The notes: generated from the sequence alone by a model not told the origin. 64,000 nt of DNA from an uncultured virus (IMG/VR IMGVR_UViG_2888331157_000001) (IMGVR_UViG_2888331157_000001); one strand, 5' to 3'. Positions 20,581 to 37,571 are shown, counted from the first letter of the stretch. A program made the numbers and translations.

Positions 20581-20619
20581 GTATATCACCATTCCGAGAG
20601 ATTGTTTGGGACGAAGCGT

Positions 20620-21894: not shown

Positions 21895-21958
21895 AGGTTC
21901 TCTCCAGGTTGCATGATTGCAGGGGCGGCGCCCGGCCGAAGCCGAGCGCCTAGACGTT

Positions 21959-22141
21959 TCAGCTTTGCGCCAGTTCGTAGCGATCGCCGTTCTTGTCGGT
22001 GGCGATAGTCGGTACGCCGTTGGCACCACCGGTGATCTTGTCCACGCCGAGCACCTTGATCGCCTTTCCCTCAGCGTCGACGGCGTTGATGGTAATGCGG
22101 CCGCCGGCGCGCTTGGCAGTCCAACCGTTAAGCTTGTTCAT
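21959..22141 (-). CDS. Small hypothetical protein
   Basis: GGAG SD; preceded by the hairpin element. Confidence 0.65.
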   Translation of the reverse strand: MNKLNGWTAKRAGGRITINAVDAEGKAIKVLGVDKITGGANGVPTIATDKNGDRYELAQS

Positions 22142-22183
22142 TTCGATCTCCGTTGCGGTGTCATTGTTGACTGGGGTTTTCGC

Positions 22184-24064
22184 TCACGCGCCGATCTTGG
22201 CGGCGAGTTCTCGACGTTTTGCCTTGTGCTCTTCCTCCTTCTTCTTGAGTGACTGTTTCTTGGCAGGCGCCGCCTTCTTGCCCTTCAACGCATAGCCCTT
22301 GATGCGCAGCGCAGCAGGCAGCCAGCCAGTCTCCTTCGCCTTGTCGGCCGCCTCGCGCGCCATGTCTGCCTTCTTGGCTTTGGACGAAGGATTGCCGGTC
22401 ATCTCCTTCATGGCCGCGTCGATCATGGGCTTGGTGCAGGCAGCGAACCAAGCTTCTGCATCGAAGGCCGCGACAGGATCGGCGGCGAAAGCGGTCATGA
22501 ACTCCGACCTGACCCGTTCGCGGATACCGTCGTTCGTATAATCTTTCTGGAACCACTTCTCCGTCAGGTCGATCGTCATGGCAAACAACCCGGCGACATG
22601 AGCGAGCAACTCATCGCCTGTCTTCTTCGACAGATATTCGAACGCTTTATGGATGCCTCGGCTCTTAGAGTCGCTGCGGGAACCATAACCGTATACGTCG
22701 ACACGCTGGACCTGCAGCCTGGTCGGGCGGCCGATGCCCATACAGTGTTCGTCCTGGTGCTCCAGCATCGAGGCGATGAGTGCCAGCGCCATATGCGGAT
22801 TGGCCTGCACGGCCACCTTGAGAGCTGCCGTTGACGTCTCGCCGATCTTGTCCTTGAGCGGCTGCGTTAGTGCCAGAGGGTCCTTCGTCGCCTTGGCTGC
22901 GGCAGCCAGCGGTTCGTCGCCATCATCCGCTTCGCCGTCTGCGTTGAGCTTGGCACCTGGCTTCAGGCAACCACGGCGGATGCGAAGTGTCTCCGCGTCG
23001 AAGACGATTCCGGTTGCCGCCACCTGCTCGGCCGAGAAGCAGTTCGCCTTGGCTTCAAGGGAATCGTATTCTGCGTTGAGCTTCTCAACCTCCGGATCGT
23101 CTTCCATCGCGCCTTCGAGTTCATCGGCGATGGCATCCATCCGAGCCGTTTCTTCGTTGGTGAGTTCGATGCCTGCCGGCGAGACAGCACGAACCGCATA
23201 GGCGTCGTTGATGCCAAGCTCCTCGGTTGTGGCAAAGAACGCCCAGCCTTCGGCAAGCGCTTCGGCGCGCAGCTTTTCGATGGCCTCCGCCTTCAGCCCA
23301 GGGATGAGGTCGGTACTGATCCACATCGAATCTTCGCCGAACAGATCCTCGTGGACGATACCGCCAGCCGCTTGGTAGGCGTCGACGCCGATAAAGCTGG
23401 CCAGGGCGCTGGTGGCTTCAACTGCTGTGTGCCGCATCGCGTTCTTGATGGCCCACGATTCGCCTCGATTGTAATTCCCGGCGTCATTGAAGTGTTTGAT
23501 CTGCGCGTCCTGATCGGGATTGGTGGTGTACGCGCAGGCCGCGCCGAAGTTGACCTTGCCATCCTCGAATGCCGCCAGGATTTCTGGATGCAGCCGCGCC
23601 AGCGCCAGCCGCCCCTTAACGTAACGATCAGTCTGGCCGAAATGGAGCGCAACATCCTCAACGGATTTTCCGCCCTCGACGAGTTTCAGGAATGCACGGA
23701 ACTCGTCGGCCGGCGTCATCTGCTCGCGGATCAGGTTTTCGGCGAGAGATAGTTCGGTAGCGGTTGCATCGTCGGTGTCCCGGATGGTGATTGGCACCGG
23801 GTGGTCTGACGGGAGTTTTCCCTCCTGCACGAGCTCGCCCAAGGCTATCCATCGGCGCCCGCCGGCAAAGATGCGGTAGAGCTGCCCTCCGAGATCGGCG
23901 TCGCCGGTGACTGGCGGCCGCACTGCAATCGGCTGGATGATGTCGTGCGCGAGGATCGAAGCCTTCATCTCCACGATTGCCTCGCGGCTGTGCTTCTTGC
24001 GGACGTTTGCAGCGTCGTCACGGATGAGACGGTCGAAAGGTACTTTCGGTTGTTCGGACTGCAT
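22184..24064 (-). CDS. Large ParB/RepB/Spo0J-domain protein
   Basis: NVRK, IIQPIAV, AGGRRW, LAENLIRE.M.PADE, HTH, RLALARL. Confidence 0.88.
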   Translation of the reverse strand: MQSEQPKVPFDRLIRDDAANVRKKHSREAIVEMKASILAHDIIQPIAVRPPVTGDADLGGQLYRIFAGGRRWIALGELVQEGKLPSDHPVPITIRDTDDATATELSLAENLIREQMTPADEFRAFLKLVEGGKSVEDVALHFGQTDRYVKGRLALARLHPEILAAFEDGKVNFGAACAYTTNPDQDAQIKHFNDAGNYNRGESWAIKNAMRHTAVEATSALASFIGVDAYQAAGGIVHEDLFGEDSMWISTDLIPGLKAEAIEKLRAEALAEGWAFFATTEELGINDAYAVRAVSPAGIELTNEETARMDAIADELEGAMEDDPEVEKLNAEYDSLEAKANCFSAEQVAATGIVFDAETLRIRRGCLKPGAKLNADGEADDGDEPLAAAAKATKDPLALTQPLKDKIGETSTAALKVAVQANPHMALALIASMLEHQDEHCMGIGRPTRLQVQRVDVYGYGSRSDSKSRGIHKAFEYLSKKTGDELLAHVAGLFAMTIDLTEKWFQKDYTNDGIRERVRSEFMTAFAADPVAAFDAEAWFAACTKPMIDAAMKEMTGNPSSKAKKADMAREAADKAKETGWLPAALRIKGYALKGKKAAPAKKQSLKKKEEEHKAKRRELAAKIGA

Positions 24065-24119
24065 GCGTGGTTTCTCCTGTATGGCATGATTGCCGGGTGG
24101 TGAGCGGCTGGCCGCCGCA

Positions 24120-24335
24120 TTACTTCCAGAGGATCAGATCCGATCCATCCAGAAACTGAAGACGTTCGTCGACAGACGTCGCCTTGCTGGTTGTGCCGGC
24201 GCCGTAGCGCACGAACACGATTCTTGCCTCGACGTTTACGGAGGTGACGATGCCCTGCTCGGGCCGGGCATTTGGGTGAGCCGCCGTGTAGATGACGGTG
24301 CGGCCGACCCAAGGGTGAGTAAAATCAACTGGCAT
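24120..24335 (-). CDS. Small hypothetical protein
   Basis: GGAGG SD; beta-rich. Confidence 0.55.
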   Translation of the reverse strand: MPVDFTHPWVGRTVIYTAAHPNARPEQGIVTSVNVEARIVFVRYGAGTTSKATSVDERLQFLDGSDLILWK

Positions 24336-24843
24336 CGGTGCCCTCCAGAACTTCAAAGCGTCCGTCTTCAAACTCCTCGCGGGGACGTGCCCACAGCGAA
24401 CCGTCATCGACGCTGCGATAGATGGCGACTTCCCGAAGATCGACCAAGGCGGTCTCGTCCTCGTCGACGGCTATGTCGCGCCAGTGTTCAGCCTGCATCT
24501 TACCGATGCCGATCAGCGCGTATGTGCTGCCCCGCTTCTTGTGACGGTGGGTTGGCGCGTCCTGCGAGCCCTGCACTGGATGGGATGCGAGCGCTTCGGC
24601 AACTTTCCCGCAATCTGCACCGCTCGTATGGCACCGAGGACAGCAAACATCGCTGTCGTCGCCGAAACTATCGGTGCCGCAATGCTTCGACGAGCCTACC
24701 CAGCCGCAATGATCACATGAGGCAAGATAGTAGGGCTCGCTTGCCTCGAGCGAGACGATCGGGCCAGAGTAGGCAGCCATCTGCTTGAGGTCTTCGAGAC
24801 GATGTTCCTCTGGCGTCATTGCGCCATCCTCATTGTCAGTCAT
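24325..24843 (-). CDS. Zn-ribbon + DUF1653-like protein
   Basis: CDHC...CPRC; THRHKKRGSTY...IYRSVDDGSLWARPREEF. Confidence 0.65.
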   Translation of the reverse strand: MTDNEDGAMTPEEHRLEDLKQMAAYSGPIVSLEASEPYYLASCDHCGWVGSSKHCGTDSFGDDSDVCCPRCHTSGADCGKVAEALASHPVQGSQDAPTHRHKKRGSTYALIGIGKMQAEHWRDIAVDEDETALVDLREVAIYRSVDDGSLWARPREEFEDGRFEVLEGTDAS

Positions 24844-25676
24844 GTTGATTTCCTTTCTGCCATGTTTGGCGGGACAGTGAAGTCGAACGCCATCTGGCCG
24901 GCCTTGGGTGGCGCGGCCTTTGAGACTTTGCGGATGATGGGCTCCGGCGCTTCGATTGCCGGCACTGCGATCGGCTCTGTCGGCGCCGGCGTTGCGATAT
25001 CGAACCGCTTCGGAAACAACCAAGCAGTCGGCGTCAACGAGTAGGCCCACTCTTGCAACGTCAGGGCGTTCCCATGCACTACGATGCCCGAAACGCCGGC
25101 AAGCGACGTCTGAATGTAGCAACCAGCCATCGCCTTGAACTCAACATCGATCATCTGCCAGTGGCAGTGCCGGGCAGGTTCGAAGCCCTGCTCGCGCATG
25201 ATCTCCGCAACGGCGAGAACCATGCCGCCCATGCCGGCGGCAGGCTCATGCGCGGTGAAGTAGCCGCGCGGTGAGGCCGCGATCATCTCGCCAAGGTCAG
25301 GCATGTTCACTCGGGCGATTAGGCTAGAGAGCTCATGCGGCGTGAAGAACTGGCCGTGGTCCTTCGAGCCGCCGATATCCATGTAGACCGGGCCGAGGAA
25401 GTCTTCGCACTTCGCCTCGAGCGCTTCGACCGTGTGGCCCAGCATCTCAACCAGCGCCGCCATAGTCTCCTTCGGGTGACGGCAGCGGCGGACGATCTTC
25501 ATGTATTCGTCCTCGTTCTGCTGCCAGGCATCACCGTGCAGGAACGCGCCGCGGATTGATCGATAGCCAGCTTCAAGGAATGCACGGAAGGCGTCGTATT
25601 GGGTCCAACCTTCCTGACGGCTCAGGGATTGGGCAAGGCGGACGAACGCCTTGCGGTGGGTGTCATGCGGATGCAT
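24840..25676 (-). CDS. Truncated HsdM-like N6-adenine methyltransferase family protein
   Basis: DFLG..Y, GQFFTP, EPAAGMGGM (motif I), IDVE, HGNAL; no NPP[FY] motif. Confidence 0.75.
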   Translation of the reverse strand: MHPHDTHRKAFVRLAQSLSRQEGWTQYDAFRAFLEAGYRSIRGAFLHGDAWQQNEDEYMKIVRRCRHPKETMAALVEMLGHTVEALEAKCEDFLGPVYMDIGGSKDHGQFFTPHELSSLIARVNMPDLGEMIAASPRGYFTAHEPAAGMGGMVLAVAEIMREQGFEPARHCHWQMIDVEFKAMAGCYIQTSLAGVSGIVVHGNALTLQEWAYSLTPTAWLFPKRFDIATPAPTEPIAVPAIEAPEPIIRKVSKAAPPKAGQMAFDFTVPPNMAERKST

Positions 25677-25729
25677 CCGCGATCTCCATCTTTGCCATAG
25701 TCGGCGGGTTCGATCAGGTTGGCCGGTAG

Positions 25730-26566
25730 CTATTTCTTGCGGGCGCCTACCTCCCGGGCGCGGTGTTCGAGCTTGGCGGTGGCCATGATGATCGGCTTCA
25801 ACTCAGTCGGAGCATGGTCATAGTCGCGGCCGTATTTCCCGTTGAGGCGGGGCAGCATAGCGCGCGGCACGGCCTCCCAATTCGACGGGTCGGTGTTGAG
25901 CCTGTCACCGTTTATGCATTTGAGCGCCATGCCGACAGGCAATTGACCATTGGCATCTTCCCACCGGATCTTCTGGACAGTCTGCCAGCGCGACTGTCGC
26001 GGAAGGCCATCATGGACCTTCCGTTCAAGATACCCTTCTTTGCTGAACCGCTCGGTTCCGATCGGTTTGTACTTCTCGGCAGCGGCACCCGTTATGCCGC
26101 CCTTCTTGAACTGGGTCTTGCGGGCATTCGGGTGGCGCCCGCCTTTGCCCGGAGGACACCGCTTTCCTTTGTTGACGGGCGTCATGCCCTTCTCGAAACA
26201 GCCTGTGCGGCCCGTCTTCCAGCCTTTCCGCTTGCGGAGAGCATGCAGGAATCTGGGATAGACATCCTCGCGGCCGAACTTGGTGCAGAACTCGCGGCAG
26301 TAGTCGGAGACGACCATGTCGGCGTTATCTCGAAGCCAGTTCATTTCCTCCGTCGAGAATTTTCGATGGCGACCGTAGAATCGACCCGGGGCACGCCCGA
26401 CGAACCATCCCTTGCGCTTCCTCAGCCCGTGGAGGTTGAGCGCGGAGATATCGTTTCTACGAAACAGCTCGACGAAAGCACTGTGATAGTCGCTGATGAT
26501 CATCGTGCGATTGGCTTCGAGCCAAGCCATCTCGTCGTCGCTGTAATGGATTGGCCGCCCCCTCAT
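25730..26566 (-). CDS. HNH endonuclease-like protein with duplicated N-terminal repeat
   Basis: Two (Y/F)S..EM.WL..N...LH.LRKRKGW repeats; FKKG repeats; NGDRLNTDPSNW (His degenerate). Confidence 0.75.
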   Translation of the reverse strand: MRGRPIHYSDDEMAWLEANRTMIISDYHSAFVELFRRNDISALNLHGLRKRKGWFVGRAPGRFYGRHRKFSTEEMNWLRDNADMVVSDYCREFCTKFGREDVYPRFLHALRKRKGWKTGRTGCFEKGMTPVNKGKRCPPGKGGRHPNARKTQFKKGGITGAAAEKYKPIGTERFSKEGYLERKVHDGLPRQSRWQTVQKIRWEDANGQLPVGMALKCINGDRLNTDPSNWEAVPRAMLPRLNGKYGRDYDHAPTELKPIIMATAKLEHRAREVGARKK

Positions 26567-26814
26567 TTCCCGTCGATCTCCCTGGGCCCGGAGAGCATTG
26601 GCAGGTCTTTGCGGAACCTGTCGCCGTGGTTTGCGACCAGCGTCGCAGCAGCAATTCCAAGGCGTGCGTTGTCGACGATCTTGTCCGCGATCTGGACCAT
26701 CGCCTCCGTGCGCTGGACTTCCGCTTCGAGCTCATCGCTGGTCAATCCCTCTTGCGAGAGACGCTCCATCTGCGCGAACAAATGATCGTTGAGATCGGTG
26801 ATACGGTTCTTCAT
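26563..26814 (-). CDS. Hypothetical phage protein
   Basis: MKNRITDLNDHLFAQMERL motif; AAGGAG SD. Confidence 0.7.
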   Translation of the reverse strand: MKNRITDLNDHLFAQMERLSQEGLTSDELEAEVQRTEAMVQIADKIVDNARLGIAAATLVANHGDRFRKDLPMLSGPREIDGK

Positions 26815-27052
26815 TGTAGATCTCCTTGCGGTGCCATAAGTGGCGGGGTGCGGCGGTCAGGCTGCGGTATCACTCTATCGGCGCAGGACCTTCGCGCCAA
26901 GACTCTCTCGGGTCGAGCAAGCTGCGGTACCGGAGCCGAACTGGAACGCTCCGGACGTCAACCTGCTCCTCGTACTTCTTGCCGGCCTGAGTGGCGTCCA
27001 CCCACTCAGCGCCGTCATAGTCAAAGTCTGCTCTGGCCATTGTCGATGCCTC

Positions 27053-28228
27053 CTAGGCTGCGGTGAGGTAGACAGACTCTCCGAACGGCGTCTTTGCCGC
27101 CAGATCATCGAACGTTCGACTGTCGCCAAACACCGCCCAGATCACCGGGCAATTCGGAGCCTTGCCGAAATCATGAACGTAGAGGTCGGTGAAGAAAACG
27201 ACGGCGGATGCGTCACCGGCATTCTTCGATATCCACTCGAAGACGCCAGAGAACGCGGTACCGCCGCCGCCTTTTGGATCGAGTGCAAGCTCGTCACCGG
27301 CTTCATACGTCTCGACGCGCTGCACCTTCGTGTCGGCGTAGATCACGGTGATGCGATCGACCATGCCGTCGCCGAACGCGCCATTGATCTCGGATGCAAA
27401 GGCAGTCAGCGCCTTGGCGTCGATCGAGCCCGAGGTGTCGACGCACACCACCAGATGAGCAACGCCATCCGATATGACGCCAGGCAGCACCATGTTCTGG
27501 TGCAAGAACCGGCGGTTCGGCCGCGCCCACGAGAAGTCCTTCACGTTGCTCTCGTCGATGAAACGCCGCAGCACTGAGCGCCAGTCGATCACGGGCCGGG
27601 TCAGGCGATTGATCAGCCGCTTCAAGCCGGCCGGCATATTGCCCGCCATCTTCCCGTTGGCGATCGCCGCCGCCTGCCGCACCCTCGTCTCGATGTCGGC
27701 CTTCGCGTCGGCCAGGCCGGCCTCATCGAATGGCGAGCACGCGTCGATCACGCCGCCGCATCCGCCCGGGTCGTTGCCCTGCTGCTGACCGCCGCCGCCA
27801 TTCTGTTGCGCTTCCTCTTCGAGGATACGACACACCTCCTCTGCACCCATGCCAGTGAAGCGCGGATTGAGCAGGCCGCCCTTGGGCATGGAGCCGACAT
27901 TGGTCTCGGACAACTCACCGTTGATGCAGTAGTCCGCCGCGATGTTCCAAAGCCGAGCGTCGCGCATCTGCCGGCGAATGTGGTGCTGCAGCGCGTTGTG
28001 CATCACCTCGTGCGCCAGAACGAAGATCAGCTCCTGCTTGGTCAGGCTCTCCACGAACGGGCCGTGGACGTAGAGCCGCTTCCCGTCGGTGGCCATCGTG
28101 TCGATGCGCGGATCGCCCGTGGCGTCGACCAGTTCGAGCTGGATGGCGAGCGTGGCGAAGAACGGATGATCCCACAGCAGCGACGTGCGGGCGGCGAGCA
28201 ATTTGTCTTCGACTGCTTTGCTAAGCAT
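27053..28228 (-). CDS. DUF2201-type metallopeptidase + VWA-like domain protein
   Basis: PFFATL, TMATDG, HEVMH (HExxH), WNIAADYCIN; MIDAS DTSGS, GGGTAF, FTD. Confidence 0.9.
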   Translation of the reverse strand: MLSKAVEDKLLAARTSLLWDHPFFATLAIQLELVDATGDPRIDTMATDGKRLYVHGPFVESLTKQELIFVLAHEVMHNALQHHIRRQMRDARLWNIAADYCINGELSETNVGSMPKGGLLNPRFTGMGAEEVCRILEEEAQQNGGGGQQQGNDPGGCGGVIDACSPFDEAGLADAKADIETRVRQAAAIANGKMAGNMPAGLKRLINRLTRPVIDWRSVLRRFIDESNVKDFSWARPNRRFLHQNMVLPGVISDGVAHLVVCVDTSGSIDAKALTAFASEINGAFGDGMVDRITVIYADTKVQRVETYEAGDELALDPKGGGGTAFSGVFEWISKNAGDASAVVFFTDLYVHDFGKAPNCPVIWAVFGDSRTFDDLAAKTPFGESVYLTAA

Positions 28229-28529
28229 CGGGATATTCCTTCTCAACTTGCTGATGGATCATGAACGCGACAGCGGCGGAAACTTCGGCAGCGGATAGCC
28301 GAGACTTCAGTAGCGTCGCGCAGGAGAGCTTTGACCAAGTGCTCGGTTGCTGATCGGCGCGGCACGTCAACACCAGCCAACAACGATCACGGCCACGGAG
28401 ATAGAGATAGTATCGGCGGTCTCCTGACATGCGCCCGAATTGCCAGAACATCGTCGGACCCAGGCTTGTCGAAAACGACGTGGTGAACCCTGTCGGAACA
28501 AGGTGCGAAAGCCATTGCGCCCGGGTCAC
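28221..28529 (-). CDS. Paralogue-array member 7
   Basis: WQF...RYYLYL...RCW; C-terminal LLKSRLSAAEVSAAVAFMI. Confidence 0.7.
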   Translation of the reverse strand: MTRAQWLSHLVPTGFTTSFSTSLGPTMFWQFGRMSGDRRYYLYLRGRDRCWLVLTCRADQQPSTWSKLSCATLLKSRLSAAEVSAAVAFMIHQQVEKEYPDA

Positions 28530-28804
28530 GACAGCCCTCCCTCGCGGATCGAAGCCGCCATGCAGGCAGCGATCTCCGAAGGCAGGAGCATTAGCTTGAG
28601 AATTGCCACCTGACGGTCGTTGACCGCATACCTCCTCACGTGACCACCGGGCGTGAACCGCTCACATCGGTATGCCGTGAACCCGCGCTCGCTCTCCCAA
28701 TAGCGGAGTTCATAGAAGACCAGAGGAGCAACTTGGCCGGGCTTCTTGAGGTGCCATTGGAAACGACCGGCATGCTGGCACACCGTGTAGTGCTTGAGCT
28801 TCAT
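28526..28804 (-). CDS. Paralogue-array member 6
   Basis: WHL...FYELRY...RGF; ILKLMLLPSEIAACMAASI. Confidence 0.7.
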   Translation of the reverse strand: MKLKHYTVCQHAGRFQWHLKKPGQVAPLVFYELRYWESERGFTAYRCERFTPGGHVRRYAVNDRQVAILKLMLLPSEIAACMAASIREGGLS

Positions 28805-29124
28805 GACTGATCTCGCGGATCGTAGATCGAGGCGGCCATGCAGCGGGCAAGCAATTCTGGTGGCAGGGCCGCCTGGAACGCATCGACCGTATCTGCTGAT
28901 ACGGGTCCCCGGAAATCTTCCCAGCTCCCTCGGCGAGAACGAATGAAACGGATGCCGAGCGCGAAAAACCGATGTGGTGGAGAGTAGATCAGTTCGTACG
29001 TCCAGCGAGGATAATCCCAGCCACGGGTATGCCAACGGAACCTGAACTGATCGCCTTTGCAGCGCGGTCCGAACAGTTCGCGACGGATGGTTTCGGCATC
29101 AATGCACTCGATCAAATTGGGCAT
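28801..29124 (-). CDS. Paralogue-array member 5
   Basis: FGP; FRW...TYELIY...RFF; AFQAALPPELLARCMAASI. Confidence 0.7.
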   Translation of the reverse strand: MPNLIECIDAETIRRELFGPRCKGDQFRFRWHTRGWDYPRWTYELIYSPPHRFFALGIRFIRSRRGSWEDFRGPVSADTVDAFQAALPPELLARCMAASIYDPRDQS

Positions 29125-29153
29125 GATGGGTTCCTGTTTCACCAGCGGCAATC

Positions 29154-30162: not shown

Positions 30163-30506
30163 CCTTGCCGCCTCCCCGTGATGCCAAGGGCGGTGGCAAA
30201 GCCAATCTCCGCCGCCGGCAGCATCGCCTTGAGAGCGGTGAGTAAATCGCCACGAGGCAGGTCGCTGCGCCCAATGGCGACGTGCTGGTAGAAGCGCCGG
30301 ATTGTTGAGACGTGCGCTTGATCGCCGATATCCGATTTCAGCGCCTGGACGGTGAACTTCCGCGTCTCAGCCTTGTATCGCAGCCGGTAGCGCAAAAGCT
30401 GCTGGTTGCGGTTTTCGGCCACGAACTCCCACGCCAGGTCGAAGGCTGTATATTTGCCCTCGTAGTACCGCGTCGGGCCGGCAATCCATATGATTGGCGC
30501 ACTCAT
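30159..30506 (-). CDS. Paralogue-array member 1
   Basis: AGP; WEF...RYRLRY...RKF; ALKAMLPAAEIGFATALGI. Confidence 0.7.
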   Translation of the reverse strand: MSAPIIWIAGPTRYYEGKYTAFDLAWEFVAENRNQQLLRYRLRYKAETRKFTVQALKSDIGDQAHVSTIRRFYQHVAIGRSDLPRGDLLTALKAMLPAAEIGFATALGITGRRQG

Positions 30507-30724
30507 GACGGTTGCCTGTTCTGCTGTTGCCACCAGTGGAGATAGCAGTTCCGCTGCTCCGCCTTCGGACACCCTTCCCACCACAGCCGGCACGTCCCCG
30601 GCCCGGCTTGTGGATCACGGCCGCAGGTCTTGGCGCCCTTCCGAACCGGTCGGTATGACCATGTCGACTGCAGCGGGTCATCGAACAGGCGGGGCTCACC
30701 CGCCTGCTGTGCGTTCTTGTTCAT
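30503..30724 (-). CDS. Small Cys/Trp-rich hypothetical protein
   Basis: GAGG SD; stop overlaps the next ATG (ATGA). Confidence 0.45.
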   Translation of the reverse strand: MNKNAQQAGEPRLFDDPLQSTWSYRPVRKGAKTCGRDPQAGPGTCRLWWEGCPKAEQRNCYLHWWQQQNRQPS

Positions 30725-30735
30725 CACCGGCGACC

Positions 30736-31728
30736 TCAGTTGAAGGTGACGTCCTGATTGCGGACGGCCCAATCCGTGAACACCTGCGTATGAGAAAGCT
30801 TGTTGTCGCGCCGGACCGCATCGACCGTGAACATGATCTCGAACTCGCGACCTTGGATACGCTGTGCGTAGATCATGCCGTTCTCGAAGCTCTTGGCATC
30901 CACCTTGCGGGCCAGGCCGGAAGCCATGGCGTACTTGGCGGCAGGCTCAGATGGCACCGGTGCAGAGTTCGGATTAGCAAGCACCAGATCAAGCGAAGGA
31001 AGCTGCTGGTAGACGCGAATGAACCCCTCGAACTCGGCCGCGGCGCCATCACCAACAATTCCCCTCACCGCCTCACTGCGCAGCGCTTCGGGAGCTTTGA
31101 TCACCTTGGCAACGCTCTCCCAGGCACGCGGCGTCGGGAACGCACGTAGATCGGCCGCGCCTTCCATGTTGTGCAGGAGCGCCGGCCGAAAACGCAGAAA
31201 GGCAAGCAGCAGCGGATCCACGTCGATATCGATGAAATGCTGAACCGTGGTGTCGACATCCGGGTCGATATCGATGTGAGCGAAGCGGTTGGCCAGAGCG
31301 GAAGGCATACGCTGCGCAGCCGCCTTGTCGGACTGCCGGTTGCCTGCTGCAATGATGCGCCAGCCGGGAGGCATCGTGTATTCGCCGACCTTCCGGTCCA
31401 GCACGAGACCGAAGGCTGCAGCCTGCATCGAGGGAGCCGCAACGTTCAGTTCATCCAGGAAGAGAAACCCGCGCTCGCCGTCGCGCTCCACTTGCGGGAA
31501 CTCATCCGGCACCTTCCATTTGGCAGTCTCACCCTCGACCGAGGGAATACCCATCAGCGCGACCGGGTCACGTGTCGAGCAGCGAAAGTCGATCACGTTG
31601 ACGCCCTGCTCTTTGGCGAGCTGTTTGATGAGCGAGGACTTGCCCACGCCCGGCATGCCCCACAGGAATGCGGCGAGATCGGCGTAGATGTAGAGCGACA
31701 GCAGTTCTTTGGCGCGCTTGAGGTTCAT
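30736..31728 (-). CDS. MoxR-like AAA+ ATPase
   Basis: WGMPGVGKS, FLDELN, IIAAGN, ALANRF, FPTPRAW. Confidence 0.92.
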   Translation of the reverse strand: MNLKRAKELLSLYIYADLAAFLWGMPGVGKSSLIKQLAKEQGVNVIDFRCSTRDPVALMGIPSVEGETAKWKVPDEFPQVERDGERGFLFLDELNVAAPSMQAAAFGLVLDRKVGEYTMPPGWRIIAAGNRQSDKAAAQRMPSALANRFAHIDIDPDVDTTVQHFIDIDVDPLLLAFLRFRPALLHNMEGAADLRAFPTPRAWESVAKVIKAPEALRSEAVRGIVGDGAAAEFEGFIRVYQQLPSLDLVLANPNSAPVPSEPAAKYAMASGLARKVDAKSFENGMIYAQRIQGREFEIMFTVDAVRRDNKLSHTQVFTDWAVRNQDVTFN

Positions 31729-31743
31729 TGATAGAGTTCTCCA

Positions 31744-32052
31744 TTATTTGCCATGCTTGGCGGGTTGGGATGAGGCTAGGAGTGGGGGCAGCGGCTCCAG
31801 ACGCGGAAACGGCTGTCCTATCTTGTTGAATTCGATAGTGACCCGGCGGAGGGGGTAACCCCGCGACCGTGATCGGTCCTCCCGGATCGCGTCGATCTGC
31901 GCTTGCACGTAGATCCAGCGCTCGCCGTTATCGACGCGGGGTTTGTTGTCTTCCGAATGTGTGATCAGGAACCACGCATCGGAGATTAGCTCCTTGTGTA
32001 TTTCGCCGTCGATCTCGCGGCGGACGTACTCGCCGATCGATTCTCCTGGCAT
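31744..32052 (-). CDS. Hypothetical protein
   Basis: Fills the gap in the operon. Confidence 0.5.
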   Translation of the reverse strand: MPGESIGEYVRREIDGEIHKELISDAWFLITHSEDNKPRVDNGERWIYVQAQIDAIREDRSRSRGYPLRRVTIEFNKIGQPFPRLEPLPPLLASSQPAKHGK

Positions 32053-32055
32053 TGG

Positions 32056-32448
32056 TCAGAACCAGACGCGGCGGCGGAAAAGCACTGCTGGTCCGCAGAT
32101 AGGTGGCATGGTTGCGGCGTCGTAGTTGTCCGGGTCGTGAGTGCGGATGTTGTTGTGATAGATGTCCGTCGCACGGACGTTCCGGATCATCTTGCCGTTG
32201 ATCGCCGAGCGGTCCCCGACGAACATGTCGACATATTCGCCATCCACGAACACCCGGACGCGTTCCATGCGCTCTCCGGCGAGATGCGGCTCGATCACAG
32301 CACGAAGGGCATCGAGGCTTGGCCGAGCCGTCAACTGGGTTTGGCGCTGCTGCACCTCCCCTATCTCGGGAATGACAAAATAGTCGGTCAACATGTCGGC
32401 CGCCCAAGCAACGAGCCAGTTGGGATCGACTTCGCTAAGGTGAGGCAT
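32056..32448 (-). CDS. Hypothetical protein (DUF3846-like)
   Basis: PSLDALR...E.V...MFV......N.RAT...ICGPAVLF pattern. Confidence 0.55.
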   Translation of the reverse strand: MPHLSEVDPNWLVAWAADMLTDYFVIPEIGEVQQRQTQLTARPSLDALRAVIEPHLAGERMERVRVFVDGEYVDMFVGDRSAINGKMIRNVRATDIYHNNIRTHDPDNYDAATMPPICGPAVLFRRRVWF

Positions 32449-32452
32449 CGCA

Positions 32453-32638
32453 TCACTGCACCAGCGGTTGGTTGGCATCAATCTTGGCTTGGATACGAGC
32501 GATCCGCGCGTCATCTTCCGGTGTCGAACCGAAGAACGCGCAGTCGTCTCGCAAAGTATCCAGCCAGAGGCGCAGATCGGATATCTCGTGGAGCTCTAAC
32601 CGGCCCTCTCGATCGAGCAGTTCCTGCAGGTGGCTCAT
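32453..32638 (-). CDS. Hypothetical protein
   Basis: ATGA coupling. Confidence 0.55.
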   Translation of the reverse strand: MSHLQELLDREGRLELHEISDLRLWLDTLRDDCAFFGSTPEDDARIARIQAKIDANQPLVQ

Positions 32639-32844
32639 TGGATCACCGGCTGGTTGGCGACGATCGTCACATCCGCGTTCGTGGCGAGGTCGATCACGCG
32701 GATGCCCTCGATGCCGTCGACCTGGTCGTCAGCAAGCGTGGTCTGGTCGGCGTGATAGGCTGCGAGTGCAGCGGCGGGTGATGCAGCTGTGACGACGTGA
32801 TACTCCGTGCAGCGCGTCGACACGGCGACGTGGTAGCGTTTCAT
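32635..32844 (-). CDS. Hypothetical protein
   Basis: AAGGAG SD plus hairpin element. Confidence 0.65.
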   Translation of the reverse strand: MKRYHVAVSTRCTEYHVVTAASPAAALAAYHADQTTLADDQVDGIEGIRVIDLATNADVTIVANQPVIQ

Positions 32845-33113
32845 AACGGGTCTCCTTTTTTCGCATGATTGCGGGGCGTGCCTGGGTGGCACGGATGGTG
32901 GCTCACTCCGGTGAAGTGGCGCCCGTTTCGATTGCCCCAGTGCCAAGCTTTGCAGCCTAGGCAGTAAAAGATGCCGACGGGCGCAAACAAACCGAGCATG
33001 CCAACTGTGCGAAGCGCCCAAACGGCGTTCACTGCGTCAGCAGGGGTGGCGTACGGGACTTTCGGAGTACGCCGGCACTGCTTGCGCCGCTTTCCAAGAA
33101 AGCCGAGCGGCAT
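32841..33113 (-). CDS. Small Zn-finger-like protein
   Basis: K.PYAT...A....YCLGCKAWHW. Confidence 0.55.
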   Translation of the reverse strand: MPLGFLGKRRKQCRRTPKVPYATPADAVNAVWALRTVGMLGLFAPVGIFYCLGCKAWHWGNRNGRHFTGVSHHPCHPGTPRNHAKKGDPL

Positions 33114-33114
33114 G

Positions 33115-33438
33115 TTACCGGCCCTTCGCCTTCGCAAGAGCCGCATGGCCGGCGTCGGAAAGTACTTTCAGCCCTTTCCAGTTCTCGTTTAGGCCGCTGG
33201 TCTGCCGCTCGTCTATCTCGATGTCGATCTCATGCAGGATTGCCCCGAGCGCCGCGCGCATCTCCTTTGCGGCTGACAGCAGATAGGCGTTGGCAAGCGC
33301 GTCTCCGTTCGCCTTGCCACCCTTTGAGCCGATGCGGTGGACACCGCAGATGACGACTGCCGGGGTGGTGAGCGCTACAATGCGGACGAGGCGTCCATTG
33401 CTCACCGACCACGTGCCGTCCGTGGGTTGCGATTTCAT
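33115..33438 (-). CDS. Hypothetical phage protein
   Basis: T.GTW...ANAYLLSAAKEM.AAL...AALAKAKG; GGAG SD plus hairpin element. Confidence 0.7.
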   Translation of the reverse strand: MKSQPTDGTWSVSNGRLVRIVALTTPAVVICGVHRIGSKGGKANGDALANAYLLSAAKEMRAALGAILHEIDIEIDERQTSGLNENWKGLKVLSDAGHAALAKAKGR

Positions 33439-33484
33439 CGTGTTCTCCATGATCGCATGATTGCGGGGTTTGGAGGCGGCTGCT

Positions 33485-33745
33485 TCAGCCGCCGCCGGTA
33501 TCAATTTCGATTGATCTGGGAGTCATTTCCTCGTCCACCCAAAACAAATCGTCTTCGCCGCAAGCGACATAAAGCACGCAGTTTGGAAGGATGGTGGGTA
33601 GAAAATTACCTTTGGCATCGATCGATGTTACGCCACAGAATGGCTGATGATCAGTGCTCGATTGCGAAAACTGACGGCGGAGACTGTCCCGGGCGCAGTT
33701 TAGAAGATCAAGGTATTGCTCGCCGGTCATACGCATCGAGGTCAC
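33485..33745 (-). CDS. Hypothetical protein
   Basis: GTGA coupling with the upstream gene. Confidence 0.5.
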   Translation of the reverse strand: MTSMRMTGEQYLDLLNCARDSLRRQFSQSSTDHQPFCGVTSIDAKGNFLPTILPNCVLYVACGEDDLFWVDEEMTPRSIEIDTGGG

Positions 33746-34650
33746 GCCAAAAAACCGGAAACCTGATCGAGGATCTTCTTCGCCTCGGCCGCCACATCCT
33801 TGCGGACACCTTCGTTCTCGCGCAGCACTTGCGCGTCCCAGGCGGCGAGCGGACGCAGGCGATCGACCATGGCGGTCAGTTCCGGATCACCAGTGATGTT
33901 CAGCATCGGCAGCACTTCGATCAGGTCGCGGACGTTGAGGACGAGCGAGTCGCGGAAGGCGCCTTCCGTCTGGTCTCCTTTACGCGCGGCGGGGCGGTAG
34001 GCGGTAAGCCGTTCCGCCATCCTGCCGGCGACATCGGCGACACGGCGATAGACATCACGGACCGCGGTGGCCGCACCCTCGCGCACCTGGCGCTCGATAT
34101 CCGCCCGGATGACGTCCGCTTGAGCTTCGGACATTGAGACACGGAAGTCTTCCGGCGTCGGCACGGGCAGCTTGCGCAACTCCATGCTGTAGCGATCGCG
34201 CAGTGAGTCGACCGTTGGATAGTCGGCGTCCTTAAACAGGCCGGACATCCGGTCCGGAGCGCTGCGGACCAGTTCCGGATATGAGGCGATGAACTCGCCC
34301 ACGGCGTCCATGAATTTCTGCTTCTGGAGCGACAGCCAGCGGTCGTTCGCCATGATCGCGGCCGCATTCATGATCCGGCCGCCGCCATCCATCCAAGGCA
34401 GAGTGCGCTTGTCGAACTCGGCGCGCGTGGCGCTGACGATCGACTGGATCGGTTGCAACGCCTCCTTCGGCAGCAGCAGCTTGTTGAACCGGCCGGCGTC
34501 GGCAGACGCACCATGCTCGCGGTTCACTTCGTCGGTGATCTGGCGATCGAGGCGACGGCCAGACCACTGCGTGATGTGCAGCGACACGACCACGGCGCGC
34601 GCAGCGAGTGTGGCGGTGACGGATGACGGAATACGGGCATGAGCGTTCAT
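33742..34650 (-). CDS. DUF3150-like protein (frequent neighbour of MoxR/VWA genes in mobile elements)
   Basis: VSLHITQWSGRRLD...KLLL...TLPW...YP...F/Y; family call from memory. Confidence 0.65.
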   Translation of the reverse strand: MNAHARIPSSVTATLAARAVVVSLHITQWSGRRLDRQITDEVNREHGASADAGRFNKLLLPKEALQPIQSIVSATRAEFDKRTLPWMDGGGRIMNAAAIMANDRWLSLQKQKFMDAVGEFIASYPELVRSAPDRMSGLFKDADYPTVDSLRDRYSMELRKLPVPTPEDFRVSMSEAQADVIRADIERQVREGAATAVRDVYRRVADVAGRMAERLTAYRPAARKGDQTEGAFRDSLVLNVRDLIEVLPMLNITGDPELTAMVDRLRPLAAWDAQVLRENEGVRKDVAAEAKKILDQVSGFLA

Positions 34651-34742
34651 GCTTCTGGTCTCCATGGGTGCCATGATTGGCGGGGTTAAACGACAGAGCG
34701 ACCTATCGCTTGACGAGAACGTGCCGTGAACGTGGCACGGAG

Positions 34743-35117
34743 TCAAGGCGCTTCTTTGTACCGTGGCGTGTCAGGCAGCACGCCGACCATGCGCACGCGC
34801 GTGGCGTCGGCAATATCCTCACCTGTCAGCAGCGAGATCGCGGCGTCCACCAGCCTGTCACCCTTGAAGCGCGGGAAATCGAGCGAGGGATAGGCGTAAA
34901 TATCGGCAGGGATTTTGTATCGCTCGAAATTGGATGAATACGTCTGTGGCACGTCAAAGTATGGACGTGAACGCGCGGCGGCGCGGCGTGTGACCGCGTC
35001 GACCGTTACCTCTTGACGGCTCTGGAATCCGGCTTCGCCAATGAAGACGAACCAGAATTTCAGTTTTGAGGCTGTCACCTGCCGCGCGTAGGGACCAATC
35101 AAGAGATGTTCCATCAT
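34743..35117 (-). CDS. Outlying paralogue-array member 8
   Basis: IGP; FWFVF; C-terminal AAISLLTGEDIADATRVRM. Confidence 0.6.
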   Translation of the reverse strand: MMEHLLIGPYARQVTASKLKFWFVFIGEAGFQSRQEVTVDAVTRRAAARSRPYFDVPQTYSSNFERYKIPADIYAYPSLDFPRFKGDRLVDAAISLLTGEDIADATRVRMVGVLPDTPRYKEAP

Positions 35118-35356
35118 GGCTGGCTCGGGCGCAGCTCAGTCGTCTTCATGAACTCGATGAGACGCAGGCGCTCTTCCCGCTCCGTGTCCGTCTCGACACG
35201 CGGTCGCTCGAGCCAGGCAAGGACCATGGCGCGGTGTTCCTCGCTGTATGGGCGGCCATCCTCGAAGAAAAACGAGAACATGCAGGCGCCGGGGTCACCG
35301 GCGCGCAGATAGGAACCGTAGGCGGAGGCCGCGCCGTAAGCGTGGCGGCGGTTCAT
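35114..35356 (-). CDS. Hypothetical protein
   Basis: GGAGG SD; ATGA coupling. Confidence 0.6.
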   Translation of the reverse strand: MNRRHAYGAASAYGSYLRAGDPGACMFSFFFEDGRPYSEEHRAMVLAWLERPRVETDTEREERLRLIEFMKTTELRPSQP

Positions 35357-35700
35357 TGGTTGCAACCCTCCACCACGATCACTTCCCGCGGATTGGGAGG
35401 CACTACCGCGCCAGTCATGGCGTCCGAAAACGTGTCGCCCTGCCCGACGACATATTCGTCGCCTGTCCAGTCCACGGCCGAGACCGTGCAGACGGGCGCA
35501 TGCATGACAGTCCACCACGCTTGCGCGGCCATGGTGGATACGATGACAAGCGCGGCGACAAGCGAGCCGATAAGAATGATGGAGGCGCGCTGCGCTCGGA
35601 TTTCGCGCAGGCGCTGGCCCTCGAACTCGCCAACGAAGAACGGATTCCGGCCTTCAAGCGAAGCGGTATCGTTCACGGGAACACGGTCGGGATTCAGCAT
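35353..35700 (-). CDS. Hypothetical membrane-anchored protein
   Basis: Hydrophobic IILIGSLVAALVIVSTMAA segment. Confidence 0.6.
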   Translation of the reverse strand: MLNPDRVPVNDTASLEGRNPFFVGEFEGQRLREIRAQRASIILIGSLVAALVIVSTMAAQAWWTVMHAPVCTVSAVDWTGDEYVVGQGDTFSDAMTGAVVPPNPREVIVVEGCNQ

Positions 35701-35891
35701 GGCCAGCCGCTTTCGAGAACGCGGGCAGACTGGAGACGGGTGCGCTGCGCGCGGAAGAAATCGCATTCGCGCGCGAGATCTTCCTCGAACTCGCGGCGGT
35801 CGCGTTCACGTGGCGTTTCATACGCAGGATGATGCCGGAAGGCGGCAGCGCGCGCGGTGCGCCTGTCGTCCGGCTGGAAGACGGATTGCAT
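35694..35891 (-). CDS. Small hypothetical protein
   Basis: GGAGAG SD plus hairpin element. Confidence 0.55.
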   Translation of the reverse strand: MQSVFQPDDRRTARAAAFRHHPAYETPRERDRREFEEDLARECDFFRAQRTRLQSARVLESGWPC

Positions 35892-36175
35892 GACGGATTC
35901 TCTCCATTGGTGCCATAAGCGGCGGGAAAAGGCAGTTTACCGACGTGCCAAGGTCCGGGCGGAATCCTACCGCCATGGCTTCCTCACATTGCCCTTCAGC
36001 GGGCTATCTGCGTTGCGCTGGTGGCGTGGCGCGCAGCTTTCCGGCTTGCTTTATCCCTCGCCCGGCGACGAGTCCGCGTGCGTCGTGGCGGTTGTTGAGG
36101 CTCGACCCTTCCACGCGATTTCGGCCATGTGGCCGCGTCTGGACGGATTCCTCCCGTCCACACGTAGCGACATGC

Positions 36176-36208
36176 AAAAAAGGCCGCGCGACAGAAGCCG
36201 CGCGGCTG
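36176..36208 (-). terminator. Intrinsic terminator after the first gene of the leftward operon
   Basis: Minus strand GCCGCGCGGC-TTCT-GTCGCGCGGC-CTTTTT. Confidence 0.75.
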
Positions 36209-36231
36209 GAGTGATGGATATCAGGCGAGGA

Positions 36232-36930
36232 TTAGGCAGCTGCGCTGGCCAGACGGTCGGACGCTTCACGGTCAACCTTGATACGCTTGATCGTGGAAGC
36301 GGGCGCAGCGTCCTTGTCGGATTCCGGCTTGGCGACCTTCGGACGGCTGGCCTTCGGCGCGGCTTCCTTGGTCTCCTCGCCTTCCACTGGCTTGGTTTCG
36401 GCCTGCTTGATCTCGACCACGTTCGAGGTTGCGGCAGCGGGCTTCGCCTTGGCCGTCATCTCGCGGTATTTCTTGATCTGGGTGGCCATGAACAGGGCGA
36501 AGTTCTTGTCGTCCTGACCCGCGTCGTCGTCGTCAAGCGTGGCGTCCGCAATCTTGCCAATACGGTCGACAAGCGGTGCCTTGGCCTTGGCTTCGGTCGA
36601 TTTCTTGTCCTTTTCATAGTCCGCCGGCGACGTGGTGAATGCGGCCGGAAGGTCGGATTTCTTGCCCTTGGCATAAGTGAACACCAGCTTGACCGCGTCA
36701 AACGCGACCTTGCCGAACGCGGTCATCCACTTGACGACGGCGGCGCGGTAATTCTTGGGCGTGGCCGAGTAGATGGCGTTGCAGTAAATCGCGTCGTGAT
36801 GTTGCTCGACGTGGTTCAGCGCCGAATAGGCAAGCTGGTGCGTCTTTTCGGTGAAGGTGGCGGCGGTCTTGCCGTAGCTGGCAACGGCGGTCTTGAGGGA
36901 CTTGCCGGTCAGGATTGCGAAAGCGGTCAT
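36232..36930 (-). CDS. First gene of the leftward operon; conserved-looking phage early protein with Lys/Ala-rich tail
   Basis: GGAG SD plus hairpin; strong codon bias; L.H..QH.D...PKNYR.A...W..AFG...F.Y.K. Confidence 0.8.
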   Translation of the reverse strand: MTAFAILTGKSLKTAVASYGKTAATFTEKTHQLAYSALNHVEQHHDAIYCNAIYSATPKNYRAAVVKWMTAFGKVAFDAVKLVFTYAKGKKSDLPAAFTTSPADYEKDKKSTEAKAKAPLVDRIGKIADATLDDDDAGQDDKNFALFMATQIKKYREMTAKAKPAAATSNVVEIKQAETKPVEGEETKEAAPKASRPKVAKPESDKDAAPASTIKRIKVDREASDRLASAAA

Positions 36931-37521
36931 GTTCATTTCTCCGTAGGTGGCATAATTGCCGGGTTTCGGTCTCAAGCGACCGTGACAGGCGCGTTCAGCG
37001 CCGCACCTGTCAGAGTGGCTTGAGTGTGACGCCGCGCAGCTCGCACCGCGCGGCGTCTCTCCTTCTTTGCCATGATTGGCGATTTGCGGTCTTACCGTTG
37101 CCAGCGTGACCGCATTCATTTGCGAGATTGAAATCTGAATTGTTCTTTCTCGAACGACTCGCCCTTGCGAGTTGCTAGCCTTCCGGGGACGGCGGGCCGC
37201 TTGGTGGCGTCCCTTCAAGCGGGGTCGTTTAACCCTCGCACCGCGCATTTGTTCCCGTGCGCTCTACCGTCTCGCCTGCCCGCTTCGTTGCGCGGCGTAC
37301 CTTGGTAGCCCCATTGTTTCGATAAGTCGGCGCAATGGGAGCGCCCGTACGGCTGGCCTAGTGAGTCACCACTGGCATCGGACCGTCTGCTATAGGTTCA
37401 AGGCCGCGCCCCCTCGCCTGCCTGCCAATCGTCCAGCCTTGCCAGCCTGCCATCCAGAAGGATGACCGCTTGACGTTGCCAGCAACCGGCAAGCCCGAAG
37501 GCCGCTTGTCCTGTCACCACT

Positions 37522-37533
37522 CTGTCAAAGAAC
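37522..37533 (-). promoter_or_regulatory. boxA-like antitermination site
   Basis: Minus strand GTTCTTTGACAG about 30 nt after the predicted TSS. Confidence 0.55.
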
Positions 37534-37571
37534 TCGGCGAACTCGCCGCACCGCTAGGAAGCGATGGCCAA

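Follow-up and report, generated by a model that had tools for sequence, protein, structure and literature searches.

The window analysed here, a stretch of 64,000 nucleotides (nt) from an uncultured virus (IMG/VR IMGVR_UViG_2888331157_000001), contains a temperate prophage of the siphovirus type. Thirteen copies of a small hairpin, the subject of this analysis, lie on its minus strand within the early leftward operon, just upstream of Shine-Dalgarno (SD) sequences. The operon comprises 32 genes, as delimited from open reading frames (ORFs), start codons and SD sequences. Based on Pfam and PHROGs, these include beta-clamp-like, ParB-like, N6-methyltransferase-like (MTase-like), HNH and MoxR-like ATPase genes as well as a DUF2201 metallopeptidase/VWA-like gene, which backs the labels dnaN-like, ParB-like, MTase-like and MoxR-like given in the original prediction from the sequence alone. 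The name DUF3150-like for a further gene of 302 amino acids (aa) is a lead from the protein Atlas, and many small genes of the operon have no family. The first gene of the operon is termed gene A in the following. Head, tail and primase/helicase-like genes are located on the plus strand (Table 1). A sigma-70-like sequence (TTGACA-17-TATGTG) was spotted by eye near 37600-37565 on the minus strand. No near-identical phage was found in GenBank by megablast with 15.4 kb, and a protein search with the ParB-like gene returned only relatives with at most 34% identity.

Table 1 Features of the leftward early operon and its surroundings. Hairpins are written in mRNA sense as stem-loop-stem. Plus-strand genes were assigned with PHROGs.
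Feature	Position	Strand	Hairpin	Score	Remarks
Leftward early operon with all copies	20461..37600	-			from ~37.1 kb down to the terminator-like hairpin
Terminator-like hairpin, strong	20484-20461	-			end of the operon
Gene A, 232 aa, phrog_1448	36235..36930	-			first gene of the operon; candidate reader by co-occurrence
Copy 0, leader copy	37069..37080	-	GCCA-ATCA-TGGC	27.8 bits	ATC in place of CCC
Copy before gene A (ATG 36930)	36949..36960	-	GGCA-ATTA-TGCC	31.5 bits
Copy before 65-aa gene (ATG 35891)	35912..35923	-	GCCG-CTTA-TGGC	22.7 bits	G.U closing pair
Copy before DUF3150-like 302-aa gene (ATG 34650)	34670..34681	-	GCCA-ATCA-TGGC	33.7 bits
Copy before 107-aa gene (ATG 33438)	33454..33465	-	CGCA-ATCA-TGCG	30.0 bits
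Copy before 69-aa gene (ATG 32844)	32862..32873	-	CGCA-ATCA-TGCG	31.0 bits	within coding tail of upstream 90-aa gene
Copy before MoxR-like AAA ATPase (ATG 31728)	31750..31761	-	GCCA-AGCA-TGGC	29.3 bits
Copy before 83-aa gene (phrog_2044; ATG 26814)	26833..26844	-	GCCA-CTTA-TGGC	29.1 bits
Copy before N6-MTase-like 278-aa gene (ATG 25676)	25694..25705	-	GCCG-ACTA-TGGC	26.1 bits	G.U closing pair
Copy before 172-aa gene (ATG 24843)	24859..24870	-	GCCA-AACA-TGGC	25.4 bits	within coding tail of MTase-like gene
Copy before ParB-like 626-aa gene (ATG 24064)	24083..24094	-	GGCA-ATCA-TGCC	31.5 bits
Copy before 60-aa gene (ATG 22141)	22160..22171	-	GTCA-ACAA-TGAC	18.4 bits, E 0.062	prefix CCA; weakest copy
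Copy before DNA polymerase III beta-clamp-like gene (GTG 21894)	21910..21921	-	TGCA-ATCA-TGCA	27.1 bits
Copies with TGA overlap (see text)	21910, 22160, 24859, 26833, 31750, 33454	-
Primase and helicase-like gene	16073-18513	+
Terminase gene	39542-41446	+			with portal, protease and major head genes
Tape measure gene	50914-54876	+			with tail genes

Read in mRNA sense, the element consists of the bases (a)CCC, a 4-bp stem of the form NNCA/UGNN with a 4-nt loop NNNA (mostly AUCA), and a 3' A. It is followed by 2-8 A/C-rich bases, GGAG(A) and, 5-10 nt further, the start codon. All thirteen hairpins originally claimed were found in place on the minus strand. The bare 12-nt hairpin (NNCR-NNNA-TGNN with four pairs) is common in the window, with 28 matches on the plus and 52 on the minus strand. 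What sets the thirteen copies apart is the CCC prefix (11/13), the 3' A (13/13) and a GGAG or GGAA 4-8 nt downstream (13/13). The proposed tie to SD sequences is supported.

This arrangement is not expected by chance. The pattern CCCNNCRNNNATGNNA has 13 matches in the window, which correspond to 11 of the claimed copies and two unpaired, unrelated sequences on the plus strand; in 100 shuffles it was found 1.38 times on average (standard deviation 1.2), and 0/100 shuffles reached 13. If both outer pairs of this core had to be complementary, the two strands of the 6.02-Mb genome (12 Mb) yielded 112 matches, of which 11 fall within the 15-kb operon and share one strand. When GGAG 3-8 nt downstream was required in addition, 12 genome matches were left, 10 of them in the operon. 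A covariance model (R1) recovered 13/13 copies on the minus strand of the window, besides one weak match on the plus strand (E 0.28). Applied to the 6.02-Mb genome, it gave 16 matches at E≤1, of which 12, including the best 11, are located in the operon and four weak ones elsewhere. The host genome outside the prophage contains only weak or unpaired matches, and the motif is essentially absent there. The distribution is thus not that of dispersed host intergenic repeats (REP/BIME, RIME, MITE-like), as the R1 matches are concentrated in the prophage operon.

The statement that the element is not a described motif agrees with the search of the whole window against Rfam 15, in which no family matched at gathering thresholds. 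At E≤1, two unrelated sub-threshold matches (P6 small RNA and mir-4847) were obtained over positions 20400-38500, neither of them on a motif copy. The match to the Pseudomonas small RNA P6 lies opposite the leader (36984-37057, plus strand), scored 31.9 bits compared to a gathering score of 50 and is probably due to chance. Four 12-nt motif strings, searched for in about 8.4 million texts of the searchable literature without subscription journals and supplements, led only to an unrelated paper on CRISPR interference in Borrelia. A keyword search for repeated stem-loops before phage SD sequences gave nothing relevant among 7 of the 8 papers found, as judged by titles and the beginnings of abstracts.

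Which genes carry the element follows a simple rule. Genes that start at least 15 nt after the upstream stop codon are preceded by the motif in 9/10 cases, compared to 2/21 of the genes that follow more closely or overlap (mostly by ATGA or GTGA). This indicates that the motif marks starts that are unable to rely on translational coupling. In both of the latter cases, the hairpin is embedded in the upstream coding tail; these are the copies at 32862 and 24859, and at 31750 the upstream stop codon follows 3 nt after the copy. The original prediction had placed several copies in such tails. The confinement to the leftward operon was borne out by the R1 scan of the window, which found no copy before genes of other transcription units: neither the late operon nor the rightward replication genes use the motif.

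The spacing is narrow as well. Hairpin and SD sequence are separated by 2-8 nt (mode 5-6), the AUG of the motif lies 17-27 nt (mode 22-23) before the start codon, and 303/341 linker bases are A or C. The element is consequently found ~20-31 nt upstream of the start codon, which is about the 5' edge of the region covered by the 30S subunit. Across 118 distinct copies, conservation spans only positions -5 to +22 relative to the first stem base, and none of the positions -50 to -6 is conserved (≤0.12 bits each). The absence of conserved bases at -50 to -6 disfavours a sigma-70-type or a two-part phage promoter. Promoter-like sites were also no more frequent than in shuffles (4 versus 4.8; scan of 20000-39000), and the promoter reading was rejected. 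A fixed relation to the upstream stop codon was likewise discarded, as the distance to it ranges from -140 to +30 nt.

The original prediction regarded the element as specific to this phage. This does not hold, since about 20 related phages and prophages, counted by contig name, carry the array, among them records titled Rhizobium sp. CF080, Ensifer sp. MPMI2T and a Devosia metagenome-assembled genome. A strict-pattern scan of 401 genomes of the same family revealed 0-3 matches per strand in nearly all of them. A few had at least four matches on one strand; five of these were followed up, and arrays were confirmed in three (G303, G074 and G146), which belong to three other genera. For G078, also among the 401 genomes, the count did not exceed the chance level. 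Additional arrays were detected when IMG/VR and one genome per species were scanned for the exact pattern, and in protein-guided scans with gene A and the DUF3150-like protein. Among the genomes of 185,579 species, 15 loci matched, and arrays were present only at the Devosia (11 matches), Rhizobium (8) and Ensifer (4 on the same strand) loci; the remaining 12 loci, with single matches that include other phyla, are taken as chance.

The motif-bearing elements have gene A, DUF3150-like, MoxR-like ATPase and VWA-like genes in common (43-68% identity), and most of them contain the clamp-like gene (28-37% identity). The motif is often found ahead of orthologous genes in these relatives. Over 19 sources, 168/170 model matches are on the operon strand, and in the loci oriented by gene A no model match lies more than ~120 nt upstream of that gene.

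The relatives allowed the claimed covariation of the outer stem pairs to be followed beyond the window, and it held, also at loci not used for training. In the training set of 66 copies (A1), 94.3% of the cells pair, compared to 71.6% in shuffles (0/500). Pair 2 is GC in 38, CG in 26 and UA in two copies and never unpaired, although the selection of A1 had itself required pair 2 to pair. For this reason, an unbiased test was made in which a sequence-only model (R2) searched 11 loci outside the training set and returned 52 distinct copies (A5). In these unseen copies, 95.7% of the cells pair, compared to 73.3% in shuffles (0/500). Their pair 2 is GC in 33 and CG in 19 copies, with none unpaired, and their pair 1 is GC in 21, CG in 18, UA in three, UG in one and other combinations in nine. 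Slid registers on the same copies gave 10-40% pairing. A pairing-blind pattern count pointed in the same direction, as pair 2 pairs in 69/80 SD-linked matches versus 49/101 matches without an SD sequence. The change of both arms is also visible at single genes. The orthologues of gene A show five stem classes (GGCA/TGCC, GCCA/TGGC, GCCG/TGGC, CGCA/TGCG and CGCA/TGCA) in 11 distinct upstream regions, and the DUF3150-like orthologues carry the motif in 16/17 cases, again with five stem classes.

The predicted folds have a mean free energy of -3.8 kcal/mol, and the median inner-pair probability is 0.84 in a 90-nt context. Unpaired and closing bases are fixed: CC occupies positions -2/-1 in 98-99% of the 118 copies, and the last loop A with the following UG as well as the closing C-G are found in 118/118, of which the 66 A1 copies were chosen by a pattern that fixes that C and the ATG and the 52 A5 copies were not. 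The invariance that had been claimed therefore applies to the loop A and the UG; the 3' A, which had been included in it, is present in only 81% of the 118 copies. Taken together, phage early mRNAs contain this cis element as a real and conserved feature with structural support. Its fixed orientation, the SD distance of 2-8 nt and its use exactly at uncoupled starts point to the mRNA as the molecule in which it acts.

As the best explanation we consider an mRNA operator for a phage-encoded RNA-binding translation regulator, to which we assign a probability of about 45%; the reader is putative. One such factor would recognise the fixed loop and closing bases, while the outer pairs of the stem would need only to pair, whatever their sequence. 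When bound, it might repress or time ribosome loading at all tagged cistrons jointly, resulting in a translational regulon with one reader and many operators across the polycistronic early mRNA. Copy 0, upstream of the first gene, could provide feedback on the whole operon. We infer the action in RNA, the protein reader and the sign of its effect. Of the post-transcriptional regulon suggested in the original prediction, the real, covarying, SD-linked and operon-confined element without an Rfam counterpart thus stands and the regulon is its best-fitting reading, whereas binding, processing and an effect on expression are inference only. The fixed unpaired and closing bases, the near absence in the host and the uniformity of the copies within a genome are more easily explained by a specific reader than by structure alone.

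More distant phages suggest a similar picture. Seven of them (L064-L070) gave no R1 match at E≤0.05 despite the presence of DUF3150, MoxR and VWA genes (30-41% identity of the DUF3150-like protein). In three of four that were inspected (L064, L066 and L068), other repeated start-linked sequences were found; none was seen in L069. L066 contains six copies of a 45-nt module (CGTCACGTAACGTGACAGATCAACCGAAGGA...ATG) on the plus strand between 452 and 9968, with the palindrome GTCACGTAACGTGAC ~12 nt before an AAGGA SD sequence, ahead of MoxR-like, VWA-like and DUF3150-like genes, among others. In L064, AGGAGGCCCGACCG is repeated before at least four gene starts on the plus strand, and the same is true for TAAC(C)A..AGGAGT in L068. 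Each phage lineage seems to keep its own tag, and the finding of different tags on orthologous genes suggests that they co-evolve with a partner encoded by the phage. In addition, L066 has five further TGTCACGTnACGTGACA palindromes.

Gene A is a candidate for this partner based on its co-occurrence with the motif. Every motif-bearing locus that extends to the start of the operon contains it, whereas five motif-less loci with the same gene trio do not. It encodes a conserved ~110-aa N-terminal domain followed by a Lys/Ala/Pro-rich tail. An extended and more tentative version of the operator reading, which we hold to be distinctly less probable, would combine lineage-specific mini-hairpin tags on early ribosome-binding sites (RBSs), one phage RNA-binding reader with gene A as the candidate, feedback through the leader, and a co-evolution of tag and reader that insulates lineages from each other, e.g. 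L066 with GTCACGTAACGTGAC.

Several observations weigh against the operator and its reader. The pairing of the stem does not fix the strand. The original prediction had argued that the G-U closing pairs work only on the mRNA strand, which holds within the window (two G.U pairs, no mismatch) and fails in the relatives, where a C.A outer pair occurs on the sense strand in 15/66 and 9/52 copies (the CGCA...TGCA class) and outnumbers the G.U closing pairs (3/66 and 2/52). As a C.A on the sense strand is a legal U.G on the opposite one, the wobble pattern leaves the strand unfixed. The co-occurrence of gene A and motif is confounded by kinship, the motif-bearing phages being the closer relatives (DUF3150-like identity of 49-66%, compared to 30-41% in the motif-less phages), and L032 contains a gene A orthologue without an upstream hairpin. 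No operon protein was assigned to a known RNA-binding family by Pfam, NCBIfam or PHROGs. The structure model of gene A (pLDDT, the predicted local distance difference test score, of 67.5) has no convincing fold match, and Foldseek returned nothing at E≤0.001; the best VIA-align result (Z 6.5) covers a helical hairpin only. Gene A itself has no Pfam or NCBIfam match, its best hit in a PDB profile search has an E of 0.15, and in the protein Atlas it falls into unnamed viral clusters only. Furthermore, the copies inside coding tails would be unwound by ribosomes that translate the upstream gene, and the operator reading does not explain the invariant AUG beyond being a recognition triplet.

This AUG was followed further in the window. 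Where a start could be assigned, the gene begins in frame +2 relative to the motif ATG in 8/12 copies, and six copies have a frame of 6-9 codons that opens at this ATG and whose terminal TGA overlaps the gene start (ATGA/GTGA; Table 1). In the relatives, the three frames are used evenly (19/16/17 of 52 copies with an assigned start), and the TGA overlap occurs in 6/52. Owing to this even use, a conserved stop-start coupling through an upstream ORF was rejected as a general mechanism and remains a local oddity. The motif AUG may be better viewed as part of what the reader recognises.

Copy 0 lies ~120 nt upstream of the copy that belongs to gene A. It is followed by AAGGAGAG and a GC-rich hairpin, without a long ORF. 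The original prediction had described it as a copy without CCC and without a start codon, which could be a decoy. ATC indeed replaces CCC and no ATG is found 5-12 nt past the SD sequence, while its own ATG (37073) opens a frame of 33 codons. This Arg-rich frame (36975-37073, minus strand) begins with MAKKERRRAVRAARRH and has no good SD sequence of its own; tblastn detected no relative of it in 10 other elements. An N-like reader encoded by this frame was rejected, as it has no relatives and the leader copies of L004 and L005 precede different sequences. A comparable extra leader copy followed by a stable hairpin is present in L004 and in L005/L029, with a T-run after the hairpin in L004. A role of copy 0 as the sensing site for feedback is speculation. 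Between the sigma-70-like sequence and copy 0 there is a leader of ~470 nt (37090-37565, minus strand).

Terminator-like hairpins are located just upstream of the copy of gene A in several relatives, and in the window a strong terminator-like hairpin (36206-36183, minus strand; 10 pairs, 9 of them G-C, then a T-run) directly follows gene A, with a gap of 340 nt without a called gene up to the next tagged gene. Five relatives (L001, L022, L023, L025 and L026) share blocks such as ATTGCAGC..AAAGGGCAGG..CCTGCCTTTTG..GAAGCAAT.CGCTTCA just upstream of the hairpin of gene A. The leader blocks and the terminator-like hairpins may point to control by attenuation or antitermination, and due to the hairpins around gene A, termination control may be layered on top of the element.

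Among the alternatives to an operator, we regard a signal for RNA processing or stability as unlikely. An endoribonuclease of host or phage would cut in the CCC, the A/C-rich flank or the GGAG. In a variant, the hairpin would form a 5'-terminal stem that protects the downstream cistron, so that the operon would be split into segments of different lifetime. The RegB protein of T4 cuts GGAG in the SD sequences of early genes, and 5' stem-loops protect mRNAs from RNase E. Consistent with such a role, almost all boundaries between uncoupled cistrons carry the element, its small stable stem is bordered by fixed single-stranded bases, and it is restricted to a single long operon of about 32 genes. 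Against it, the distance from the upstream stop codon is not constant (-140 to +30 nt), and the operon proteins contain no nuclease family except for two HNH DNA-endonuclease-like genes, which are not present in all relatives.

A self-acting translation element, which the ribosome would read without the need for a phage factor, appears somewhat less probable again. The hairpin could act as an SD insulator or standby site, it could stack on the helix of SD and anti-SD sequence, or its AUG could attract ribosomes. The A/C-rich linker (303/341), which is unable to pair with GGAG, the constant SD spacing, the invariant AUG (118/118) and the use of the motif exactly where translational coupling is absent would all be in line with this. 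However, a structural insulator leaves the fixed bases of loop and flank and the lineage-specific shared sequences unexplained, and the predicted probability that the SD sequence is unpaired is moderate (median 0.44). With frames that are uniform in the relatives (19/16/17), the use of the AUG as a start would often create interfering out-of-frame upstream ORFs. Moreover, neither the host's own genes nor the late genes of the phage use the element.

We consider it improbable that the element acts at the DNA level, i.e. as an orientation-specific operator or a single-stranded DNA hairpin at which a phage DNA-binding protein silences or pauses transcription. For a dimer that reads the sequence of duplex DNA, one would not expect the two arms to change in a compensatory manner, even though the core is an inverted repeat and the C.A mismatches are legal T.G pairs on the opposite strand. 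Moreover, loop and flanks lack symmetry, arms of only 4 bp are too short for cruciform extrusion, the tight SD link of 2-8 nt has no obvious reason on DNA, and the putative promoter region (37100-38500) contains no copy. The single orientation and the position in short intergenic spaces are shared with stoperators, which are mentioned in the sections of PMC3203893 considered here, and the model of gene A has a predicted helix-helix-strand-strand stretch that could suit a DNA-binding protein. The same protein might also bind RNA, as Aca2 does. Finally, the original prediction had offered gene-cassette boundaries as an alternative. It is conceivable but very improbable that the shared 25-30-nt module is a recombination linker, i.e. 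microhomology for cassette swaps with incidental covariation: the tagged genes do comprise conserved ones (gene A, DUF3150-like, MoxR-like, dnaN-like) as well as others that vary from phage to phage (ParB-like, MTase-like, many small ORFs), but microhomology needs no stem and predicts sequence identity instead of compensatory change, and the motif is kept at orthologous, syntenic genes without evident exchange.

Based on the parts of Pope et al. 2011 (PMC3203893) that deal with them, the start-associated sequences (SAS and ESAS) of Cluster K mycobacteriophages are the nearest published case, both descriptively and functionally. The SAS is described there as a 13-bp asymmetric consensus (GGGATAGGAGCCC) that includes the SD sequence and lies 3-7 bp from the start codon; 11-19 copies are found per genome, in one orientation, in the non-structural half and with near absence from the host. 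Its function is still given as unknown, and a role in translation initiation with a reader from host or phage was proposed. The ESAS are 17-bp imperfect inverted repeats with a variable spacer, described in the same parts of the paper without compensatory changes, for which the authors favoured DNA binding (PMC3203893).

As far as this description goes, our element resembles the SAS in its many copies, its single orientation just upstream of the starts of non-structural genes only, its rarity in the host and its conservation across related phages before genes of different families. It differs in being a hairpin upstream of a separate GGAG(A) without sequence likeness to GGGATAGGAGCCC, and the host phylum is another. 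In contrast to the ESAS as described there, it has 4-bp arms, a fixed 4-nt loop and strong compensatory changes. It is a new addition to a poorly understood class of start-associated phage motifs. The repeated SD contexts of L064 and L068 mentioned above resemble SAS-type motifs.

The nearest demonstrated mechanism, judged from the sections of PMC13551039 on these regulators, is that of Aca2, a helix-turn-helix (HTH) protein that represses translation by binding hairpins in the 5' untranslated region (UTR) next to the RBS. Aca regulators are phage-encoded and block ribosome binding, and the same protein can read related DNA and RNA (PMC13551039). The motifs of Aca2 and Aca1 described in these sections are, like our element, small conserved hairpins by the RBS of phage early genes. 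Unlike the 13 copies inside the operon of the prophage, they occur once per operon 5' UTR (two hairpins for Aca2), and they are accompanied by an aca gene for an HTH protein and by a corresponding inverted repeat in the promoter. No HTH, ribbon-helix-helix or Aca family was detected in 33 operon proteins (Pfam; NCBIfam for 17), anti-CRISPR genes not having been searched for, and pattern and R1 scans gave no motif copy in the putative promoter region 37100-38500.

Other phage proteins, namely T4 RegA, the MS2 and PP7 coat proteins and T4 gp43, have a short RNA sequence or hairpin in the translation initiation region as their target. RegA shuts off many early mRNAs at once, although its sites are not hairpins, and the MS2 coat protein recognises a tetraloop (AUUA or AUCA) whose adenines are fixed, on top of a stem whose sequence is free. 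The sites of these proteins overlap the SD sequence or the start codon, whereas the element described here is located 5' of the SD sequence. No homologue of RegA or of a coat protein was detected among the operon proteins with Pfam and PHROGs.

The stoperators of L5-like (Cluster A) mycobacteriophages are asymmetric repressor sites on duplex DNA that are found in both genome arms and show no stem covariation. Like our element, they are many copies of one short site in short intergenic spaces with one orientation to transcription; unlike them, our element has a covarying stem and is confined to one operon. If the extended version with lineage-specific tags and readers were true, it would represent an RNA-level counterpart of stoperators. 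Lambda N and boxB are a further case of a small mRNA hairpin read by a phage protein. There the stem has 5 bp and the pentaloop is GNRA-like, boxA serves as a partner, and a phage has one or two such sites at a large distance from the RBS. The 33-codon frame of copy 0 is Arg-rich like N-type peptides, though it is not conserved in the relatives. The element departs from a nut site in its 4-bp stem, its AUCA loop of 4 nt and its 13 copies, and it lacks a conserved upstream box.

That phage early regions can contain repeated start-associated motifs has been known since 2011, but no mechanism is known for them. The present case goes beyond that of the mycobacteriophages by the compensatory evidence for a hairpin, the fixed SD distance and a rule for the tagged genes, and it offers about 20 natural variants with orthologous sites together with a short list of conserved candidate genes for the reader. 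If a phage protein reads the motif, this would constitute an operon-internal, multi-site system of translational control and a compact natural part (16-nt tag plus reader) for co-regulating many cistrons, and the annotation of where early genes start in prophages of rhizobia and related bacteria would benefit. Should the ribosome or a host RNase be the reader, the motif would instead be a so far overlooked factor in the initiation of translation or the decay of mRNA in these bacteria.

Some further observations were made in passing. A different viral element in IMG/VR (L008, L009, L012, L013, L015, L017 and L018) carries one perfect copy of the motif (CCCGCCAATCATGGCA-acaGGAG) before one gene, with neither an array nor any of the conserved early genes. 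The identical string CCTACGATAATGCCAAGGCGGAG on five contigs of genome G108 is unrelated to the motif and likely belongs to a multi-copy mobile gene. Between the leftward operon and the late genes of the window (38060-38300, minus strand), dense TTGTCCG(C/G) repeats, at least 10 by eye, form a run that looks like iterons or operators of a DNA-binding protein.

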